Source: Chiloscyllium plagiosum
Taxonomy: Eukaryota
Direction: 5' to 3'
Length of the DNA stretch: 64,000 nucleotides
NCBI RefSeq assembly: GCF_004010195.1
Contig: NC_057729.1
Location: forward strand, 45,982,241 to 46,046,240
Made by a program: the position numbers and the translations under genes
In this document: one piece after another, positions 11,856 to 61,381 of the stretch
Position numbering within the stretch: position 1 is the first letter of the stretch
How the letters are laid out: each line of letters begins with the position of its first letter
Notes under the pieces: generated by a model
Databases searched by the model: none
What the model saw: the letters and a program-made list of their open reading frames with translations, nothing else
What the model was told of the DNA's origin: nothing

Positions 11856-12065
11856 GAGAACCAGCATTCACTGTGTTTACTTCAGATTTCCAGCATCTAC
11901 AGTGTTTTGCCTTTAATGATGGGGGTGATTGCACTAATGCTTTCATGTAGCAGTTTTAGTAACCACAATGAGCCTTTCTCATCCTCGTGGGGTATTCTGT
12001 ATTATGTGCAAATGGCTGTGATACCCACTTATTTAATGAAAGATCAACAGAACACCGACTTTTAA

Positions 12066-12295
12066 TCAAGAACAGAAGTTGCTGGAAAAGCTCAGCTCGT
12101 CTGGCAGCATCTGTGAAGAGAAATCAAAGTTAGCGTTTTGGGTGCGGTAACCCTTCATCAGAACTTCCTCACTGGACCTGAAACATTAACTCTGATTTCT
12201 CTTCACAAATGCTGCCAGACCTGCTGAACTTTTCCAGCAACTTCTGTTTTCGTTTCTGATTTACAGCATCCACAGTTCTTCCGGTTTTGATTTTT
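12066..12295. mobile_element. Palindromic PLE-terminus mini-element, family B, degenerate hammerhead cores
   Basis: Left arm from 12071 (aacagaagttgctggaaaagctcagc) pairs with a right arm ending at 12248. The minus strand reads CTGATGA-A-GGGT...ACCC-AAAACG. Confidence 0.85.
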
Positions 12296-14934: not shown

Positions 14935-15563
14935 CATAGATTCATAGAGATGTACAGCATGGAACAGATCCTTCGGTCCAACCGACCAGATATCCCAACC
15001 CAATCTAGTCCCACCTGCCAGCACCCAGCCCATATCCCTCCAAACCCTTCCTATTCATATTCCCATCCAAGTGCCTCTTAAATGTTGCAATTGTACCAGC
15101 CTCCACCACATCCTCTGGCAGCTCATTCCATACACGTACCACCCTCTGTGTGAAAAAGTTGCCCCTTAGGTCTCTTTTATATCTTTCCTCTCTCACCCTA
15201 AACCTATGCCCTCTAGTTCTGGACTCCCCGACCCCAGGGAAAAGACTTTGCTAATTTACCCTATCCATGCCCCTCATAATTTTGTAAACCTCTATAAGGT
15301 CACCCCTCAGCCTCTGACGCTCCAGGGAAAACAGCCCCAGCCTGTTCAGCCTCTCCCTATGGCTCAAATCATCCAACCCTGGCAACATCCTTGTAAATCT
15401 TTTCTGAACCCTTTCAAGTTTCACAACATCTTTCTGATAGGAAGGAGACCAGAATTGCATGCAATATTCCAACAGTGGCCGAACCAATGACCTGTACAGC
15501 CGTAGCATGACTTCCCAACTCCAGTACTCAGTACTCTGACCAATAAAACAAAGCATACCAAAC
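14935..15563 (-). mobile_element. Young CR1 (HER1-like) 3' fragment
   Basis: ORFs 15005-15196 and 15251-15556 (LVRPLLEYCMQFWSP, RGDLIEVYKIM); repeated TCATAGA tail. Confidence 0.93.
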
Positions 15564-18445: not shown

Positions 18446-18669
18446 GGAGAAAGTGAGGACTGCAGATGCTGGAGATAGAGTCAAGAGTGTGTTGCTGGAA
18501 AAGCACAGCAGGTCAAGCAGCATTCAAGGAGCAGGAGAATCGATGTTTTGGGCATAAGCCCTTCATCAGGAAAGACTCCTGATGAAGAGCTTATGCCTGA
18601 AACATCGATTCTCCTGCTCCTCGGATGCTGCCTGACCTGCTGTGCTTTTCCAGCAACACACTCTTGACT
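18446..18669. mobile_element. Palindromic PLE-terminus mini-element, family A, two divergent degenerate hammerheads
   Basis: Arms 18479-18571 and 18577-18669 are near-perfect reverse complements. Cores TCATCAG (18563-18569) and CTGATGA (18579-18585). Confidence 0.9.
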
Positions 18670-19569
18670 GGGAATGTTATCCTCCAGATTTGAATTTTTG
18701 ATGATAACCTTTTTAAAAAGTGCTTTTTGTAAACCATTTTTCTGTCTTTTTGATCTCTTCCTCTTAATCCCTTTTCCCTGTCATTATTTTGCTTTCTTTA
18801 AGTGATATGTGGCATTGAACCAAACTGACACATCCTGCTTTAAATGCTATATCCCTGAGAAAGGGTGCTTCTTCACCTTAATTGGTTAATAAGACCACTA
18901 CTCACCCTATTCACCAAAGTCTTCTCGCCCTTGTAGATGGTGTTCAATTAAAATAATTTTCTAATCATAATCCGTTCTTGTATAAAGACCCACAGAAATT
19001 TTGTGAAAGTGTAATGACAGAAAAATGTGGTTATTATTCAGTTGGGCAATATGATAATACTACAAGAAATGAGCACAAAACAGACAAGATCATGAAAGAA
19101 ATAGAAAATTGTGTTGCTGAAATCAGAACTACTCAATGAGTAACAATTTACCATTTTTATAATTAAAAATAGTGCAATCAATTGTCATTTTAAAACCTTC
19201 ACATACAACTTGGTATATTTTTTACCGTAGTTACATTTATATCTATGGGTAATCATATATCTAATTCAGCACTCTACTATGCCTGTGTGCTCAGTGACTT
19301 CATGACTACAATTGAATTAATAGACTGTGGTACACATTGGGCTTTGTTCTAGACTCAGTATGATCTGCAAGCATAGTAATGTTTTTCAATCTTTATTCTA
19401 TGACTTTGCTGTTTTCTTTATGTTGAATTTGTTCAGCCTTTCCGCTGATGGGGCAATTATTAATTGGTAGCTCTTTGTGTTAACACACCATTGACACAAT
19501 GGGATGGCTTTAAAATGGTCAGGTTACTTAGTTATCTGAAAACCGCTCCCCCCCGCCCCCCTCACCTCC

Positions 19570-19695
19570 ATTCCTGAAGAAAGGTTATACCTGCAGCGTT
19601 GACTTCTCCACCTCCTGATGCTGTCTGGCTTGCTGTGTTCTTCCAGCCTCCTGCTTGTCGACTTTGGATTTCAGCATCTGTAGTTTTTTTGTCCT
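19570..19695 (+). mobile_element. PLE terminus, family C, degenerate hammerhead
   Basis: CTGAAGA-A-AGGT-TAT-ACCT-GCAG-CGTT (GAAA mutated), followed by 'gatgctg...ttccagc...cagcatctg'. Confidence 0.75.
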
Positions 19696-20040: not shown

Positions 20041-20288
20041 AGACAAAAACAGAAATTGCTGGAGAAATTCAGCAGGACTGGCAGCATGGGTGGAGAGAAA
20101 GCAGACTTAACCTTTTGGATCCAGTGACCCTTCTCCAGTACTCTTTAGAACGTCTGAAAAAAGATCTCTGGACCCGAAATGTTAACTCTGTTTTCTCTCC
20201 ACTGATACTGCCAGACCTGATGAGTTTCTCCAGCATTTTCAGAGCTTTGTTTCTGATTTCAAGCATCCACTGTTCTTTGTCTTATTTT
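20041..20288. mobile_element. Palindromic PLE-terminus mini-element, family B
   Basis: Inverted arms around ~20140-20152; right arm contains 'gacccgaaatgttaac'; homologous to 12066-12295. Confidence 0.82.
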
Positions 20289-20945: not shown

Positions 20946-21076
20946 TCATTCGTGATGAAGGGCTTTTGCCCGTAATGTCGATTTTCCTGCTTCTCGGATA
21001 CTGCCTGACCTGCTGTGCTTTTCCAGCACCGCACTCTTGACTCTAATCTCCAGCATCTGCAGTCCTCACTTTTGCC
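20946..21076 (+). mobile_element. 131-bp PLE-terminus element, family A, with 14-bp TSD
   Basis: Flanked by TGATTCTGCCATCT at 20932-20945 and 21077-21090. Starts 6 nt before the degenerate core GTGATGA-A-GGGC-TTTT-GCCC-GTAA-TG-TC. Confidence 0.9.
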
Positions 21077-22176
21077 TGATTCTGCCATCTACCTTATGTT
21101 GACAGATTGCCTTCAGGTCATGGAATTTTCCGATCCTTCCCAACAATTTCCAGCTTAAAATAGGAGAGAAGTCAGTTGTTCAGGTTTAAGTTCACCCCCT
21201 GAGGTAATTTAAGCCTCAATTTCAATTCCACAGCAGTGGTAAATTTTCATTGACCTTCATATACACCTCCCCAAAACCATTCTGGAATTAAAAAATCAGG
21301 GCTCGTGTGTTGGACTGGAAAGAAATTTTACTGACGTGTTCAGCAATAATCTGTATATCACTTGTTATTTTGAGTAAGTGTGCAATGGCGAGCAGTCAGA
21401 GGTAAAAATTAAGGAACTATTTGGTGTGAAATCATGGGAAGCATATTTATGTAAAGCATATTCTGAGTCACTAACAATGTAAAGCAGATGCTTTCGTTTG
21501 TATGATGCAAAATGCACTATTATCACCTTTATGAGTTTCTCTACGAAGACTGTTTATCAGCAGCTATGAAGATACAAATTCGACATGGCGTGGACAAAAA
21601 GAAGGCAAAGAAACATCAAATGAGTACTCCTACTATCAGCATTTCTCTGCTGTTGCAAGAAATTATGATTAAAAAGGAATGCATTCCTTGAAACAGATAG
21701 ATAAGCATATGAGTATTTTATACAGATTCTTTCCCCTGTGTAGCTTTGAAAACTCAGGCTAACTGCCCCATACAGATGAATTCCTTATTGCGAGTTCAGT
21801 TCCTTGAAGGCTTTGCTACATTTTTTGCTCTTCCACCTTCCAAGTTCTGATTTCCATAAAACATGCAGGAGAAGGTGACTTGCCTGACGCCAATTAATTT
21901 GTTACAAAATATGGCAGAGTGTGAGAAGTGACATTATGTTAATATCAGCTGTGTCCCTTTAAGTCATGCATGTCATATACTGCAATCAAATTTCAAACAT
22001 CACCCATTGCCTAAAGTAATTAAAATGCATATCAGTGAAGGATATTGAGCCCCATTGGTTAAGTAACACACAGCAGACTCATATTTAGAACAGAAAGATA
22101 TGTAGGCTAGCTTCATTTTGAGGGACATATTAAATCTTACATGTAATATAGGATGGAAAAGTAGGTATAGGTACTT

Positions 22177-22936
22177 ATAGAGTCATAGAGATGTACAGCA
22201 TGGAAACAGACCCTTCGGTTCAACCTGTCCATACCGACCAGATATCCCAACCCAATCTAGTCCCACCTGCCAGCACCCGGCCCATATCCCTCAAAACCCT
22301 TTCTATTCATATACCCATCCAAATGCCTCTTAAATGTTGCAATTGTACCAGCCTCCACCACATCCTCTGGCAGCTCATTCCATACANNNNNNNNNNNNNN
22401 NNNNNNNNNNNNNNNNNNNNNNNNNNNNNNNNNNNNNNNNNNNNNNNNNNNNNNNNNNNNNNNNNNNNNNNNNNNNNNNNNNNNNNNNNNNNNNNNNNNN
22501 NNNNNNNNNNNNNNNNNNNNNNNNNNNNNNNNNNNNNNNNNNNNNNNNNNNNNNNNNNNNNNNNNNNNNNNNNNNNNNNNNNNNNNNNNNNNNNNNNNNN
22601 NNNNNNNNNNNNNNNNNNNNNNNNNNNNNNNNNNNNNNNNNNNNNNNNNNNNNNNNNNNNNNNNNNNNNNNNNNNNNNNNNNNNNNNGCTAAGATTTGCT
22701 TTCCCAAAATGCAGCACCTCGCATTCATCTGAATTAGACTCCATCTGCCACTTCTCAGTCCATTGGCCCAACTGGTCCAGATCCTGTTATAATCTGAGGT
22801 AACCCTCTTTGCTGTCCATTACACCTCAAATTTTGGTGTCATCTGCAAACTTACTAACTGTACCTCTTATGCTTGCATCCAAATCATTTATGTAAATGAC
22901 AAAAAGTAGAGGACCCAGCAGCAATATTTGTGGCAA
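22177..22936 (-). mobile_element. Young CR1 (HER1-like) fragment spanning an assembly gap
   Basis: Same tail and sequence as 59910-61000; 'WTEKWQMESNSDECEVLHFG'. Confidence 0.9.
22387..22687. other. Assembly gap (N run)
   Basis: 301 consecutive N. Confidence 1.
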
Positions 22937-28208: not shown

Positions 28209-28425
28209 TATGATTTGGAGATGCTGGCGTTGGACTGGGGTGTACAAAGTTAAAACTCGCACAACACCAGGTTATAGTCCAACAGCTTTAATTGGAAGCA
28301 CACTAGCTTTCGTAACGATCGAGCCCTCCACAATCACCTGATGAAGGAGCATCGCTCCGAAAGCTAGTGTGCTTCCAATTAAACCTGTTGGACTATAACC
28401 TGGCGTTGTGTGATTTTTAACTTTG
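28209..28425. mobile_element. Palindromic PLE-terminus mini-element, family D, with 10-bp TSD
   Basis: GAAAAGTTGA at 28199-28208 and 28426-28435; inverted arms 28246-28312 and 28358-28424. Confidence 0.9.
28335..28369 (+). ncRNA. Minimal type I hammerhead ribozyme motif, intact core
   Basis: CAC-CTGATGA-A-GGAGC-ATC-GCTCC-GAAA-GC-TA|GTG: all core nucleotides present, 5-bp stem II, palindromic AGCT stem III, stem I CAC/GTG. Predicted cut after 28366; activity untested. Confidence 0.78.
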
Positions 28426-36420: not shown

Positions 36421-36788
36421 AACAATAGACATCTCTATCAGACAGCCTTGGTAAAATCATTGAGAGACAAGCTGTTTACTAAAACTGCTCAGCCGTGGTC
36501 ATAACACTTTGCAGAGATCATCATTCTATTTATTAAAAGGTGTGTGCTATAGTTGTGTTTGGTCATATCAGCAGAGATTATCACTGGTAAGGGCAAAGTC
36601 TCCATATTGATTCCCTTTACCTTTAACAGAAAAATATTTCACAGTTTGGTGCTGACTGTTCACTAACCAAGCCACACAATTTGTGGCATGTATAAAGGAA
36701 GAACAAAATTATTCATCTAAAGCCTTATTTTTCTTGATGTTAAAAATCACACAACACCAGTTCTAGTCCAACACATTTAGTTGTAAGT

Positions 36789-36821
36789 ACTAGCTTTCGG
36801 AGCGCTGCTCCTTCATCAGGT
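36789..36821 (-). ncRNA. Minimal type I hammerhead ribozyme motif, intact core
   Basis: Minus strand AC-CTGATGA-A-GGAGC-AGC-GCTCC-GAAA-GC-TA|GT, in the same sense as the GIY-YIG ORF. Predicted cut between 36791 and 36790. Confidence 0.75.
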
Positions 36822-37180
36822 TGCTAGTGGGGTAGGATCATAAGACACAGAATTTATAGCATAAGATCATAGTGTCATGCAACCGATATGATATATTGAA
36901 CCAACTTACATTGCTGTTAAGTCTTTCATCTTTGAGAATGGGTTGCAAGTTTTGATTCAGTGATACGTAAATCCCAGAATTTCTTTCAAGGCACATACCT
37001 GAAATAACTTAAGGTTTTATAAAAAAAGCTGACATTTCAGTTCAGGCAATGCATTAAAGGTGTGAGGTTAGAGTCTGTCTGTATCCCAACCTTGAGTCAG
37101 ACTTGTTCTATTTCCAAAGTAGCAATTTATAAAATGTCACGTGGATTGACTGCCTGGATTGACGGCCTGCAGATTGTGTG

Positions 37181-37263
37181 GTGCTGGAAAAGCACAGCTA
37201 TGCTTTTCTAGCGCCACATGTTTTCAGTCTGATCTCCAGCATCTACAGTCCTCACGTTCTCCT
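37181..37263. mobile_element. 83-bp family A PLE-terminus insert with short inversion and 16-bp TSD
   Basis: GCCTGC(A/C)GATTGTGTG at 37165-37180 and 37264-37279; hairpin 'gctggaaaagca...tgcttttctagc' plus tail. Confidence 0.82.
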
Positions 37264-37347
37264 GCCTGCCGATTGTGTGTTTTGAACAAAGTAGAATGTA
37301 TCTGCAAATACAATTCTGCAAATGCAAATTCACCCCATAGATTTATA

Positions 37348-42448: not shown

Positions 42449-42625
42449 AAAGTCAGAAGTCACACGACACCAGGTTTTAGTCCAATAGGTTTATGTGAAA
42501 TCATATGTTGAAGGGGCTGCGCTCCAAAAGCCTGTGATTTCAAGTAAACCTATTGGACTATAACCTGGTGTAATGTGACGTCTGACTTTGTCCACCCCAG
42601 TCCAACACCAGCACCTCCACATCAT
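42449..42625. mobile_element. Palindromic PLE-terminus mini-element, family D variant
   Basis: Arms 'aaagtcagaagtcacacgacaccagg' and 'cctggtgtaatgtgacgtctgacttt'; degenerate core TGTTGA-A-GGGGC-TGC-GCTCC-AAAAGC; CATGAATGA at 42434 and 42623. Confidence 0.82.
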
Positions 42626-42721
42626 GAATGAGAAAGCACAAGTGAAGATGCAGATGGAGCAGTGCTATGCAAGTATTTAAAAAATAATACTTTTATCTTC
42701 AAGTAGTCATTTTTTTCCCCC

Positions 42722-44190: not shown

Positions 44191-46753
44191 AAGTCAATGT
44201 AATCCACATTGCTCAATGTAGCATAACAAGATGACTGTTTTTAATTCGACTCATTCTATAACTGTTGGAATAATAAGGATTTTGTTATGTTGGAGTGCAA
44301 ACTGTGCTCTTTTAATCAAATGGGTATGGTTTAAACTCAACTTTAAACACAATGTTCTCTTAGGGAGATAATTAAAAATAGCATTTTAGTTGGATCTCTT
44401 TTAACCCCTTACCTCTTACTTTACTTAGTGTATATTTACCCAGGTCACCATACTTATAACATGAATTAACTGACATTAGATTTCCTGTGTCAGACTAAGT
44501 CAATATCTCAGTGATGAGTTCCAGTGCTCATGTACTGGAGAGTTCTGTCAGGCTGGAGTTCTCTATTGATAACACATGTTTCAATTGAAGCAGTTTTACA
44601 TTTTGAGCAGAGGTGGTTCACTGCAGACAATGATACTGGGATAGCTCAACTCCTTGGAAAAAGTGAAAACAAAGTTCAAATCAAAAGTCCAAATCAGGTA
44701 CACAGGCCACCTTCAGGAGATTGGAGACTGAATTACATTAATGTCTATTGGCTGTGACCTCTGACACTCGTGACCAATACAGCTTGTGGCTTTCATCTAT
44801 TTCTTAATCATGAGGGTTAAGGTTGTGCAATGAGAGTTTCGCTTTTGAGAATTATCCAGCTTTGACAGTTTCACAAACTGCGCACACTATTCATTTTTTT
44901 GGTAGCAGTTCTTACTGTTCAAAGATCTCTGAGCAATGATAGGTGATGTCAAACACACTATTTTCTTGTACAAGTACGTTTTTCAGCTCATACTTATATG
45001 TACAGTACTGTGACATTTTTTCTATCACCTATTATATTAACTGGTGACAGTGCACGTGTATTAAAATGTTTATGCAAATGCTTCCTCGCCTTTGCAATGC
45101 ATTTGTTGTTTTTGCTGGATTGGTTTTACTTCACAGTTTTCTTGAAGTTTGCCCTTTAAACTTACACGTGTATGCTGCTAGTTTCATTTTGAATGGAATC
45201 TTTATCTTGTCTTGGCATCAATGAGATTGAAAGTTAATAAATCACTACAAACAAATGAATGCTGTATCTGAGACAAAGAGACCTAACAACCTAACAAAAT
45301 TGTCAATATTCAGTTCTGTTTATCACACTTTGGTGCAAAAAAGGTTTTCCACAACGACCCCATTTAAGAGTCAACAGTAAAGCTAATTCTCAGTAACACA
45401 TCTGCCTGGAGCAAATTTTGATATCTTCTCATGCAAACTGTGTGATTTCTTTCCCTCAATTGTGCTCAATTGAAAAAAGTCAAGTTGCAGAAAAGATGGA
45501 TTGTCAGCAAAAGGGAAGATTTGCCACCTGTGTTTTATGAGGGCTGTTGTGGGTTCAGGCAGTGCATTGTTTTTACCTCAAGGATTCAGAATGACTATAG
45601 TGCCAATCTATCCATTCCCTTCATTTTCCTCACTCTCATTATAACCAAATGTGATCCGCTCCTTGTTGTTCCCGATGTAAACAAGGCTCTTGATCTTTTC
45701 GCCTTCCCCCTGCAGATAATTCATTAAGATGGCAGGTAGCTCGAATCCGTCTCCCTTCAGTCATCAATATTTCATAAACTACAGTGACAAATTTATTTTA
45801 ATGTGCTTCACAGCAGCTAGTGATTGATCAGAGGCTCAAAAATATGACACGTTTCAAAGCGGGATATTCATGGAGTGTTTTAGTGAATACATTAGTCAGT
45901 GGAATGGTGAGTGAATTTATCATAGTTATGGGTCTCAGATCCATCCATTTTGTTTAGCAAATGACAGCTGCTATCTGCATGACGGTATTGATTGAGCACA
46001 AGGGTTCATCTTCAAGCACATCTAGTTAGTGCAGTTTGGATGAAATTAATATAATATGGAAGATTGACGCCAGAACAATCAGAGCATGGCTGAATTATTG
46101 ATTAATAATGTCAGAAAAATATAACTTTGGACTATTAAAAGTACAAATTATATATCTCACATGATACCTCCTCAATTTTCCCTTTTTATTCATAAAATAT
46201 TGAGGCAAGTAAATGAAACCTGAAAGCTGCTTCTTCAATTTAATGTAAGAGTTGCCAATGTTTCTGCTGCTTCCATTTAACAAGGCAAAGGAACCCTTGC
46301 CATCCGCAATTTTGTATTAAACCGGCAAGTTGTATGAAGTAACAGACAGAAGAAATGGGCAGCACTCTGCGATGGAAATCCCATTTGTCTGAATTTTTAT
46401 GAGTGTGTATATTACTTAAATATAAAAAGCACATAAAAAGGAACAGGTAGAAAGCATAGATGTGCATCAATTTGAGAGCTTAAAGCTTGTCTACATTGAG
46501 GAAGAGGAAGAGTGGGGATAGACAAAGGATGTACATAGTTCTCCTGAAGATATCTTTATTTCCTCCCCAAGGCTGGCATACTGTGGATCCAAAATTACCT
46601 GGAGTCACATGCCATCTTACTTCCTCAAAATCTCCCAAACCAGAGAAATTAGCAGGATTCATAAATAGACTGAACTAAATTTCAACACAGATTCATTTTA
46701 CCACATAAGGCAGTTTGTTTTGCAGATAGACAGCTAAAATAAGAGACAGAGCT

Positions 46754-46841
46754 AAAAAATACACAACACCAGGTTATAGTCCAACAGGTTTAATTGGAAG
46801 CACACTAGCTTTCGGAGCGCCGCTTTTTCATCAGGTGGTTG
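46754..46841 (-). mobile_element. PLE terminus, family D, hammerhead with damaged stem II
   Basis: Minus strand CAC-CTGATGA-AAAAGC-GGC-GCTCC-GAAA-GC-TA|GTG; AAAATAAGAGAC at 46736-46747 and 46857-46868. Confidence 0.85.
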
Positions 46842-47159: not shown

Positions 47160-48218
47160 TGGATGAAAATGGGTGGGTTAGTAAGTTTGCAGATGACACA
47201 AAGATCGGTGGAATTGTGGAGGGTGTAGGAGGTTGTCAAAAGATATAGCTGGATATAGATCAGTTGCAAATATGGGTGGAGAAATGGCAGATGGAGTTTA
47301 ATCCGGCCAAGTATGAGGTGCTGCACTTTGGGAGACCAAATGCTAAGGAAAAGTATTCGGTTAAGGGCAGGTTTTTGAACAACACTGAGCTACAAAGGAA
47401 TCTTGGAGTTTAAGTCCATAGCTCCCTGAAAGTGGCCACACAAGTAGTTAAGGTGGTAAAGAAGGTGGCTGGCATGTTTGCCTTTATTGGCTGGGACATT
47501 GAGTCTGATTATCATGTTGCAGCATTATAAGGTTTTGGTTAGGCCGCAATTTCATTCAATTTTGGTTGCCACATTACAGGAAGGATTAGAGGCTTTGAAG
47601 AGGGTGCAGAAGAGTTTTACCAAGATGCTGCCTGAATTAGAGGTTATGAGCCATAAGGAGAGGCTAGAAAAACTAGGATTGTTTTCTCTGGAGTGGCGGA
47701 GACGCAGGAGAGACCTGATACAAATCTATAAAATTATGAGATGCATTGGTAGGATTGACAATCAGAATCTTTTTCCCGGAGTGGAAATGTCTAATACAAG
47801 GGGGCATGCATTTAAGGTGAGAGGGGGGAAGTTCAAAGGAAAGGAAGAGTGTAGAGGGACATGGGTCAAATACTGGCAAATAAGACTGGATTAATTTAGG
47901 GTATCTGGTCGCCAAGGAGGAGTTGGACTGAAGGCTCTGTTTCCATGCCGGACATTTGTAGGATTCTATGAGATGAGAGGGGCAAGTTTTTTTTACACAG
48001 AGGGTTGTAGGAGCCTGGAATGTGTTGCCAGGGGTGGAGGTGGAAGCAGATATGACAGGGGCGTTTAAGAGGCTTTTAGATAAGCACATGTATATGCAAG
48101 GAATGGTTAGATATAAACTAAGGGCAAACAGAAGGGATTAATTTAATTCAGTGTCATGTTCAGGACAACATCGTGGGCTGAAGGGGCTGTTCCTGTGCCA
48201 TTCTGTTCTATGTTCTCT
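47160..48218 (+). mobile_element. CR1 LINE 3' kilobase with a nested ~130-bp HER1-like tail (47841-47970)
   Basis: 'agtaagtttgcagatgacacaaag' (SKFADDTK) and ORF 47478-47894; host resumes at 47971. Confidence 0.9.
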
Positions 48219-51079: not shown

Positions 51080-51180
51080 GTTCCAAGGAAAGCTCATGGA
51101 CCTGAAACATTAACTCAGCTTTCTCTCCACAGATGCCGCCATACCCTGCTGAGTTTTTCCAGCAAATTCTGTTTGTGTTT
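51080..51180 (+). mobile_element. PLE terminus, family B, degenerate core, tail-less
   Basis: 'gttccaaggaaagctcatggacctgaaacattaactcagctttctctccacagatgccgcc...ttttccagcaaattctgttt'. Confidence 0.75.
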
Positions 51181-58455: not shown

Positions 58456-60072
58456 CCAAGGTTGGCTTGCTGACCAGAGATTTGTTTGGAATAATGCCAA
58501 CAGAACAGGTATGGACCTGTTTCAGGCTGAGGTAGAAATGAGACCACTTGTCCTTCACCTGGGAAAGACAATGGCAAACCACCACTAAACAAGAAAATGG
58601 TTTCGAACGAAACATCACCAGACAACGAACCAAAAGCATGTTTCAAAGCAATGCATGTGATATCAAGGTTCAAAGTAAATATTTTCTGTAAGTTGAGACC
58701 AACCAATAGTTCATTTTATAAACTCTAACATCTTCAGCTTGGAAGCAGCAGTTCTGTGCACCATTAATTAAACTGGTTGTTATTGAATATTATTTAAATG
58801 GACAATACCTTCTTGTTAATGTATCTGATAATGGTGTTGAAGATATTTTGTTGTCGTCACAATACCTCACTCATTTGGATACCACATTGTTATTAGTCAT
58901 TAAAAACAGCTAAGGTCTAACCTTTGTGGTCAGTGCATCTTAACTCTAATGCAGCATATCGCAGAATAGTGGGGTTTGGGTTTGTGTACTGTTACATGGA
59001 CATGGAAATGGAAAAGGTGCCAAGCAATAGTTCTCAGAGAAAACAGTGTAGGTTGCAATACCTGGTGAGTTAGTTCTCACCATTACAGGGCCATTCTATC
59101 TGCCCATTTCTCAGCATAGGGTATCACAACTGGAGAAGAACAAAAGGAAGCAGTGTGGCTAGAAGTGATGACGATAGTAGGATTTCCTGTGAAAGTTCTG
59201 TAGCCTCTGTTCAGATTGTCATACAATGCTGTGTAGAATATTTGGAATGTGGCCAAGTAACAAACACCATGCACTTCTGATTATTACAAAACAACTAGAG
59301 GTTCACAGAAAGCAGCAAAACATTCATCTACAATTTATAGTCACATAAATATACAACAATAGGAAATCACCAGGCATAAAAAGGGATTAAACCAGATACA
59401 CCTAAAACCAGTTCATTTGAAAAGACAAGTTGCGAATTCCAAATGATACTTGTGATTTTAATTTTCCCCCTTGCTTGTAAACCGATCACTGTTCATGGCC
59501 TTCTGCAGTGTCTCAGTGAAGCTCAGTATAATGTTGCAAGTATTTAGTTCATGGTTCAACCTTTTTGGCAGATAACTTTTGGTTTTGGGAATTAAATCTT
59601 AACTGTAGAGATGGGATGGATACAATTAAAGCAGGCTTGGAGACTATTATGCTTAGACATTTGGGCTGTGTTACCTTAAGAAGTTAACTCTGGGATTATT
59701 AGGAAGCTGAAAGCAAGCAATTCAGAAGGTGGCCATTTTTAAAAATAAATACAGAATAGAAGAGTCAGAGCTACAACCTCAGCAGGTTGACTTACTTCGC
59801 TGAAGCACTGTAGATGTGATATTTGCAGTGGTTGCAATCCAGAGAGCTTGGGCAGTCCAAAGAGGTAATTTTCACAGAATCGTACAGTACAGAAATGGCC
59901 TGTATTGATTAGAGTCATAGAGTCATAGAGATGTACAGCATAGAAACAGACCCTTTGGTCCAACCTGTCCATGCCTACCAGATATCCCAACCCAATCTAG
60001 TACCACCTGCCAACACCCGGCCCATATCCCTCCAAACCCTTCCTATTCATATACCCATCCAAATGCCTTTAA

Positions 60073-60257
60073 GGGTGCTCCAGTTTCCTCCCATAATCCA
60101 AAGATGTGCACGTTAGGTGAGTTGGCCATGCTAAATTGCCCCATAGCGTTAGGTCAATTAGTCAGAGAGAAATGGGTCTGGGTGGGTTACTCTTCAGAGG
60201 GTCGGTGTGGACTGGTTGGGTCGAAGGGCCTGTTTCCACACTGTAGGGAATCTAATC
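60073..60257 (+). mobile_element. 5'-truncated HE1-type SINE inserted in HER1
   Basis: Host 'tgcctttaa|...|taaatgttgc' is split by V-domain plus tail; TAA duplicated. Confidence 0.88.
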
Positions 60258-61002
60258 TAAATGTTGCAATTGTACCAGCCTCCACCACTTCCTCTGGCAG
60301 CTCATTCCATACACGTACCACCCGCTGTGTGAAAAAGTTGCCCCTGAGGTCTCTTTTATATTTTTTCCCTCTCACCCTAAACCTATGCCCCCTAGTTCTG
60401 GACTCCCCCACCTCAGGGAAAAACTTTGTCTATTTATCCTATCCATGCCCCTCATAATTTTAAAAACCTCTATAAGGTCACTCCTCAGCCTCCGACACTC
60501 CAGGGAAAACAGCCCCAGCCTGTTCCGCCTCTTCCTATAGCTCAAATCCTCCAACCCTGGTAACATCCTTGTAAATCTTTTCTGAACCCTTTCAAGTTTC
60601 ACAACATCTTTCCAATAGGAAGGAGACCAGAATTGCACGCAATATTCCAACAGTGGCCTAACCAATGTCCTGTACAGCCACAATATGACCTCCCAACTCC
60701 TGTACTTAATACTCTGACAATAAAGGAAAATATACCAAATGCCTCCTTCAATATCCTACCTACCTGCGACTCTGCTTTTAAAGAGCTATGAATGTGCACT
60801 CCAAGGTCTCTTTGTTCAGCAACACTCCCTATGACCTTACAATTAAGTGTATAAGAACTGCTAAGATTTGCTTTCTCAAAATGCAGCACCTCGCATTTAT
60901 CTGAATTAAACGCCATCTGCCACTTCTCAGCCCATCTGATCAAGATTCTGTTGTAATCTGAGGTAACCTTCTTCGCTTGTCCACTATGCCTCCAATTTTG
61001 GT

Positions 61003-61381
61003 GTCATAGAGTCATTGAGTCATAGAGGTGTACAGAATGGAAACAGACCCTTCGGTCCAACCCGTCCATGCCGACCAGATATCCCAACCCAATCTAGTCC
61101 CACCTGCCAGCACCCGACCCATATCCCTCCAAACCCTTCCTATTCATATACCCATCCAAATGCCTCTTAAATGTTGCAATTGTACCAGCCTCCACCACTT
61201 CCTCTGGCAGCTCATTCCATACACGTACCACCCTCTGCATGAAAAAGTTGCCCCTTATGTCTCTTTTACATCTTTCCCCTCTCACCCTAAACCTATGCCC
61301 TCTAGTTCTGGACTCCCCGACCCCAGGAAAAAAACTTTGCCTATTTATCCTATCCATGCCCCTCATAATTTTGTAAACCTC
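61003..61381 (-). mobile_element. HER1-like 3' fragment inserted into its own family
   Basis: A new tail starts at the host GTCAT; host resumes 'cttactaact...atgctcgcatcc' at ~61381 (compare the uninterrupted copy at 22831-22880). Confidence 0.88.

Follow-up and report, generated by a model that had tools for sequence, protein, structure and literature searches.

The insertion at 18446 to 18669 raises the question of why a palindrome should be centred on a hammerhead ribozyme core, and whether the ribozyme itself sets the ends of the copies from which such palindromes are made. The locus lies in a window of 64,000 nt (39.5% GC), which is a piece of the 3.56-Gb genome of the cartilaginous fish Chiloscyllium plagiosum.

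Anatomy of the focal palindrome and its relatives

The stretch from 18446 to 18669 is one insertion, in which two 3' ends of a Penelope-like element (PLE) are joined head to head, with a single tail and a decayed 14-bp target duplication. Its arms are 94% complementary across 93 nt, and the minus arm is longer by about 35 nt, which is the tail. The positions named in the original prediction fall into three families, termed A, B and C. The features are listed below; signed positions are relative to C3 of the core, and papers are cited here and throughout for their accessible parts.

18446..18575, minus strand: tailed arm, the 3' end (pLTR fragment) of a family A PLE, spanning -6 to about +125
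18577..18669, plus strand: tail-less arm of the same insertion, spanning -2 to about +90
18563..18569, minus strand: hammerhead core CUGAUGA of the minus arm; the GAAA box is mutated in this copy
18579..18585, plus strand: hammerhead core CUGAUGA of the plus arm; cleavage predicted after about 18606, numbered by the minimal type I motif (PMC4209133)
18431..18444, plus strand: left copy of the target-site duplication, decayed, matching 18669-18682 at 12/14 positions, read from the sequence
18669..18682, plus strand: right copy of the target-site duplication, read from the sequence
20946..21075, plus strand: tailed single copy of family A with start -6, bounded by a 14-bp target duplication
12064..12280, no strand assigned: family B head-to-head insertion with one tail, arm starts -4 and +11
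20044..20267, no strand assigned: family B head-to-head insertion, arm starts -4 and -1
28210..28425, no strand assigned: family C head-to-head insertion outside the cluster, arm starts +14 and -26, 7-nt overlap
42449..42627, no strand assigned: family C-type head-to-head insertion, arm starts +42 and -5
46747..46841, minus strand: single family C copy, start about -7
51080..51180, plus strand: single decayed family B copy, start -3
36739..36970, minus strand: family C copy reaching 145 nt beyond the core (counter-example)
37171..37264, no strand assigned: tiny family A palindrome with its junction at +60/+61 (counter-example)
19545-19693, plus strand: copy of a fourth related family (E), start -26, tail complete

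Palindrome centres had been proposed to lie at or just 5' of the core, and several of the examples given agreed with the alignments. The two focal cores (18563-18569 on the minus strand, 18579-18585 on the plus strand) are indeed separated by 9 nt, the C3 positions 20138 and 20154 of the two decayed cores leave 15 nt between them where about 15 nt (20140-20153) had been claimed, and the centre at ~12165, placed at or within a core, has its junction at -4/+11. For the centres at ~28313 and ~42506, to which the same had been ascribed, one arm at most fits (+14/-26 and +42/-5, respectively). Among the single copies, the start at 20946, given as about 6 nt upstream of the core, is at -6 as fixed by the 14-bp target duplication, and that at 51080, given as 3 nt, is at -3; the copy at 46841, given as 7 nt, starts at -7 by eye and at -3 by the best reference. 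Misfitting arms had been left out of these examples: only 9 of the 20 called arms in the window begin between -10 and +3, and the other starts include -145, -26, +20, +31, +49, +60 and +61. The focal junction carries no extra G. Further dispersed repeats with LINE-like open frames were noted in the window at 15187-15412, 22152-22858, 47177-48137 and 59921-61375.

Long copies of families A, B and C all contain a predicted minimal type I hammerhead (CUGANGA, stem II, GAAA, UH and a short helix I), in which helix I occupies roughly -4 to -1 and cleavage is predicted some 28-30 nt downstream of C3, following the motif in PMC4209133. Stem II folded in all four predicted structures, and the predicted folds were weak, at -7.7 to -10.8 kcal/mol and with a z-score below -2 in one of the four. 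A scan of the window at Rfam gathering thresholds gave no matches. Since CUGANGA alone was not enriched in the window (46 occurrences compared to 40.1 expected), the cores were located by alignment. In all three families a short inverted repeat at about -6 to +6 (for example at 28334-28343 of the window) overlaps the 5' edge of the core, and it may promote joining between arms or the formation of another, inactive fold.

Longer relatives of the arms run upstream into an open reading frame (ORF) with a reverse transcriptase (RT), a CxxxxCxxC linker and a GIY-YIG domain, which identifies the arms as the 3' ends of an endonuclease-positive PLE. In family A, the ORFs of three loci (L215-L217) lead into a 3' end of the focal type, with RVT_1 matched at an E-value of 1.3e-8, above the cut-off, and GIY-YIG at 21.9 bits, slightly below the cut-off of 22.6. 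Similar endonuclease ends were seen by eye in families B and E. The longest sampled copies of family C extend only into a CA-rich untranslated region, and this family is assigned as a probable endonuclease-positive PLE by its motif and insertion anatomy. In the translations, the Cys-rich, Zn-finger-like linker (CxxxxCxxC) lies between the RT and the endonuclease, which would fit the Neptune clade; such a linker is common to Neptune and Nematis (PMC8557442). A sequence search of the PDB with the ORF returned no matches. None of 13 long candidates reached a direct upstream pLTR or showed the passage from +125 into the ORF, all being truncated or gapped; a pLTR in that place is hence assumed by analogy with other PLEs. 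Long open frames at further loci (L211, L212 and L251-L263), considered as full-length elements, proved to be gap or repeat artefacts, and no common continuation past the tail was found among the sampled tailed copies.

Two other classes of element were considered and rejected. A non-LTR retrozyme (compare preprint 10.64898/2026.07.22.740005) does not fit because the window holds no head-to-tail tandem hammerhead array, the copies being single or head-to-head. A MITE, that is a palindromic DNA transposon, does not fit because the junctions vary, the arms are unequal and the duplications are 10-18 bp rather than of a short fixed length. Some longer copies showed internal repetition: a 66-nt piece of the GIY-YIG region occurs three times in frame at L035:3800-4100, and 73-nt tandem repeats lie at the 5' junction in L096 and L097, which suggests repeated re-priming. 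Beside an inverted arm at L023:4172-4400, parts of a family E 3' end are present as several short pieces in tandem. Six long insertions (L094, L101, L102, L105, L106 and L107) have inverted arms of about 180-390 nt with junctions far from the core, and arm lengths may thus be correlated within an insertion.

Pile-up of 5' ends just before the core

The distribution of copy ends was assessed in a sample consisting of the window and 160 evenly spaced 10-kb pieces, placed at round coordinates across 24 contigs (1,664,000 bases, of which 53,003 were N). This gave 480 anchor hits, 477 of which had a breakpoint called against 77 long reference copies; most references were drawn from that sample too, and matches of a copy to itself or to its own locus were left out. 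Most of the anchors lie 3' of the cut site, which kept the search from preferring copies that begin close to the core. The resulting histogram relative to C3 was not smooth: per nucleotide at risk, 7.6% of copies ended in [-10,0), 2.1% in [0,10), 0.9% in [10,26), 1.2% in [26,34) and 0.4% in [34,56), compared to an upstream background of 0.40% in [-200,-20). Between -200 and -20 there were 52 ends over 12,905 nt at risk, compared to 137 over 1,792 nt in [-10,0), an approximately 19-fold excess in the latter, and all three families peaked there (A 7.0%, B 9.6% and C 8.1% per nt). The peak persisted among copies with 90% identity or more to a reference (59 of 107 at risk) and among family A copies for which no partner was detected (32 of 80). 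The clustering just before the core is real, and the exclusion of random truncation in the original prediction is upheld in this unbiased sample. The accompanying notion of discrete unit-length elements was overstated, since among the 477 copies 109 extended beyond -20 (censored ones included) and 151 started at +10 or later; a further 201 started in [-10,+10), 12 in [-20,-10) and 4 were censored in between.

The sample contained 121 head-to-head pairs, 98 of them contiguous. In 64 of these 98 palindromes at least one arm started in [-10,+3], and in 23 both did. Exactly one tail was present in 89/98, and an outer duplication of at least 10 nt in 43/98, compared to 0.05 in swaps; target duplications measured 10-18 bp, and two preferred 3' ends lay about 35 nt apart. 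The predominance of a single tail, together with the outer duplications, fits one cDNA being made per target strand and the ends being joined. The 48 junctions listed were mostly different, which points to independent events; one was seen three times, its tail being on one arm or the other, and a second one was seen twice. Junctions reuse short complementary words of the motif. Sibling arms were on average 92% identical, compared to a median of 84% and a best value of 96% with other copies (30 family A pairs). These values support a common subfamily for the two arms, and a single RNA molecule as the source of both gains no support beyond this.

A pile-up of this kind could arise as an alignment artefact, given that the sequence upstream is C-rich and subfamily-specific, or through amplification of a few master palindromes; both are now largely refuted, leaving them a negligible chance. 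In favour of an artefact, the subfamilies of family A share sequence only from about -7 onward. In a leave-one-out simulation with uniform breakpoints, restricted to copies already known to align, the called ends in [-10,0) numbered 48 against 21 true ones in A, 34 against 27 in C and 20 against 25 in B, and with 8% added divergence the ratios of called to true ends were 50/33, 25/19 and 14/18, respectively. Breakpoint calls in family B were imprecise, with 30% falling within 5 nt. The inflation thus reached 2.3-fold at most, in A, compared to an observed excess of about 19-fold, so that unalignable upstream sequence is very unlikely to account for the clustering. Target duplications give starts of their own: at least 10 nt were duplicated around 36 of 207 partnerless copies (null mean 3.2), and 13 of these 36 duplication-defined starts, as sorted by eye, lay at -8 to +10. 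The other duplication-bearing partnerless copies were long copies, copies with hidden short inverted arms, inserts and spurious self-matches. The exact-pattern counts described below likewise contradict an artefact, and the mostly different junctions speak against master palindromes.

An extra G and the source of the ends

Genome-wide counts of exact patterns in the young A subfamily showed that the base before -4 matched the template (C) in 13,412 copies, whereas it was G in 3,017 others and either A or T in 2,016. G therefore made up 3,017 of the 5,033 non-C bases (60%), compared to 26% expected. At control positions, G was found in 15/100 family A starts at -3 among the matches listed, 20 G were found against 17 A for starts at -5 (100 matches listed), and at the cut site there were 45 G against 55 A among the matches listed. 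Family B at -4 gave 62 G against 38 A among the matches listed. For family C, two sample copies had pointed to -8 ahead of the search; breaks occur at this position in 1,179 of 5,581 copies, and G preceded 78/100 ends at -8 compared to 37/100 at -6 among the matches listed, a neighbouring-position control by which the end becomes separable from the ribozyme register. The G-marked end accordingly lies at -4 in A and B and at -8 in C, where it falls outside the 3-5-bp helix I, and in each case it is the A of a CA dinucleotide at a distance from the core that differs by family. The initiator consensus likewise has an A after a C, and an initiator fits these family-specific distances better than the fixed edge of a fold would.

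The mark is neither universal nor sharp. The older A subfamily, nearest to the focal palindrome, showed a weak excess (52 G against 48 A among the matches listed, 41% expected), and starts at -3 (5,386/23,831) and -5 (2,616/13,412) are nearly as common as those at -4. In four distinct single copies starting at -4, the G belongs to the target duplication as well and may therefore reflect selection of G-bearing targets rather than direct addition. Within palindromes the opposite arm can supply the G, above all in family C. Of the first 30 listed loci with a start at -4, 17 were partnerless, and G was present in 9 of the 16 distinct ones, so that its excess is also seen where there is no inverted arm. 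A switch of template triggered by the ribozyme, as originally suggested, is hence not needed. A spliced template with a shared upstream exon was rejected, as the flanks before -4 appeared diverse by eye in 30 loci. In 797 family A copies, T replaces A at -4 after a purine (G preceding it in 59/100 among the matches listed, 41% expected), and the focal minus arm likewise has T at -4; this could stem from miscopying of a modified cap-adjacent A, or from a source variant.

The probable cause of the pile-up, judging from these sequence patterns, is internally primed reverse transcription that runs off a capped transcription start just before the ribozyme. A Pol II promoter in the pLTR would start the RNA at the A of CA, directly upstream of helix I, and the element's protein would prime internally at about +90 or about +125. 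Where priming took place in the pLTR copy at the RNA 5' end, only 95-130 nt would be left to copy and a C would be added opposite the cap, whereas priming in the downstream pLTR copy would pass the core and yield long, smoothly truncated copies. Both nicked target strands would prime, one per start site, and the two cDNA ends would be joined, often through 1-4 nt of microhomology, into palindromes centred near the RNA start. On this view, the ribozyme would be found at the breakpoint owing to its place at the head of the RNA, and not through any cutting. A resemblance to the Drosophila downstream promoter element was discarded as too weak (5/8 by eye) and off register. Poly(A) single-cell reads from two runs of one sample (1,579 and 0 reads) had mixed loose ends at -4 and no common molecule start or end, which fits read-through of genomic copies and has no bearing on the start site.

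An RNA 5' end that is defined and uncapped, for example where 5'-to-3' decay is halted by a protein-bound ribozyme domain, combined with an untemplated C added at any run-off, would account for the sharp upstream edge beside helix I in three families and for the ragged spread from -5 to -2; the protein-binding region of an anole element also adjoins its hammerhead (PMC11167929). We regard it as unlikely, since the G-marked position is family-specific (-4 or -8), each being an A after a C as in initiators, and since starts at -3 show no excess of G. That the folded hammerhead stalls the RT or triggers a template switch is in turn very unlikely, even though in A and B the peak falls on the 5' strand of helix I, a shoulder of ends (2.1% per nt in [0,10)) extends over the core and stem II, and short complementary words of the motif are reused at the junctions. 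The first obstacles for an RT would be stem II and the 3' helix I strand, yet the peak ends lie beyond the whole structure, and copies past -10 continue at the background rate; the weak predicted folds also count against a stall, which explains neither the G nor the -8 end of family C.

Self-cleavage as the event that sets the template 5' end is refuted as the main cause and would be a minor class at most, with next to no likelihood otherwise. The consensus motif is complete in all three families, but copies made from cleaved RNA would lack the core, and those in the peak retain all of it. At the cut site, only 258 of 29,352 exact copies covering +28 to +61 have a purine for C17 (0.9%, mutation included), compared to a break frequency of about 21% at -4 by the matching measure, and cleavage was dispensable in vitro for the anole element (PMC11167929). 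A small residual excess was observed at +26 to +33 (37 ends in 3,191 nt, 1.2% per nt compared to 0.9% and 0.4% in the flanks) and could represent a minor cleaved class. The proposal that the ribozyme fold or its cleavage defines the template end is therefore retained in part: a defined template end is likely, whereas cleavage is unsupported and the fold is unlikely as the cause.

Relation to known systems

A joint reading, in which the hammerhead would be the first structure of a capped transcript and overlap the core promoter, the clustered copies would be run-off fossils, the stubs would be SINE-like and the ribozyme would have another role, is a possibility that we put forward tentatively. 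If it is true, run-off cDNA fossils number in the tens of thousands in the genome and pinpoint the start of each family to the base, the 130-nt stubs retain the start site and both priming sites and so would be self-propagating SINE-like elements, and the selected role of the ribozyme is other than making the template. Run-off at a capped start would also explain how such repeats pass for MITEs or SINEs, would tie internal priming in vitro to a very abundant genomic product, and predicts exact, family-specific RNA starts at -4 (A and B) or -8 (C). No report of a G-marked pile-up just upstream of a PLE hammerhead was found in the main texts of the accessible literature, and the map of genomic copy ends in Fig. 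S2 of PMC11167929 may be relevant to it.

Inverted arms, tails and target duplications have been described for endonuclease-positive PLE insertions (PMC8557442; PMC3846280), and the accessible parts of these papers share with the present elements the head-to-head arms, the tail at one end, the hammerhead in the pLTR and the ORF with RT and GIY-YIG. The units described there consist of an inverted 5'-truncated copy and a 30-40-bp tail; they differ in that the 5' truncation is variable, with no fixed-site pile-up or extra G reported in those parts. The Poseidon element PAc of Anolis carolinensis is primed internally at two sites bounding the tail, with both target strands extended and uncleaved RNA as substrate, ribozyme cleavage being dispensable and no reads falling at the cut site in the accessible text (PMC11167929). 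The same features are proposed here, whereas the PAc work was carried out in vitro on synthetic templates with no start mapped in that text, and the element studied here has a Neptune/Nematis-type linker.

The metazoan PLE hammerheads in PMC4209133 have the same short helix I, extra base after A9 and palindromic helix III stub, and are mostly single motifs, with some opposite-strand pairs 100-700 bp apart. That paper proposes self-cleavage and circular templates, whereas the copy ends here are not at the cut site, and the genomic copies argue against a cleave-and-circularise template for the bulk of insertions. Penelope of D. virilis has an internal TATA-less promoter in its pLTR (PMC2377424), and the transcription start that we infer here would similarly lie within the pLTR; in D. 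virilis it is followed by 46 nt and then by a 75-nt intron whose end lies at helix I, in contrast to the 4-8 nt before the core inferred here. Finally, L1-made insertions carry an extra G at 5' junctions, attributed to mRNA capping (PMC11702581). The single untemplated G, read as a copy of the cap, is the same in both, though the L1 products are made by another enzyme, primed at the 3' poly(A) and full-length, compared to the 95-130-nt stubs of the present element.
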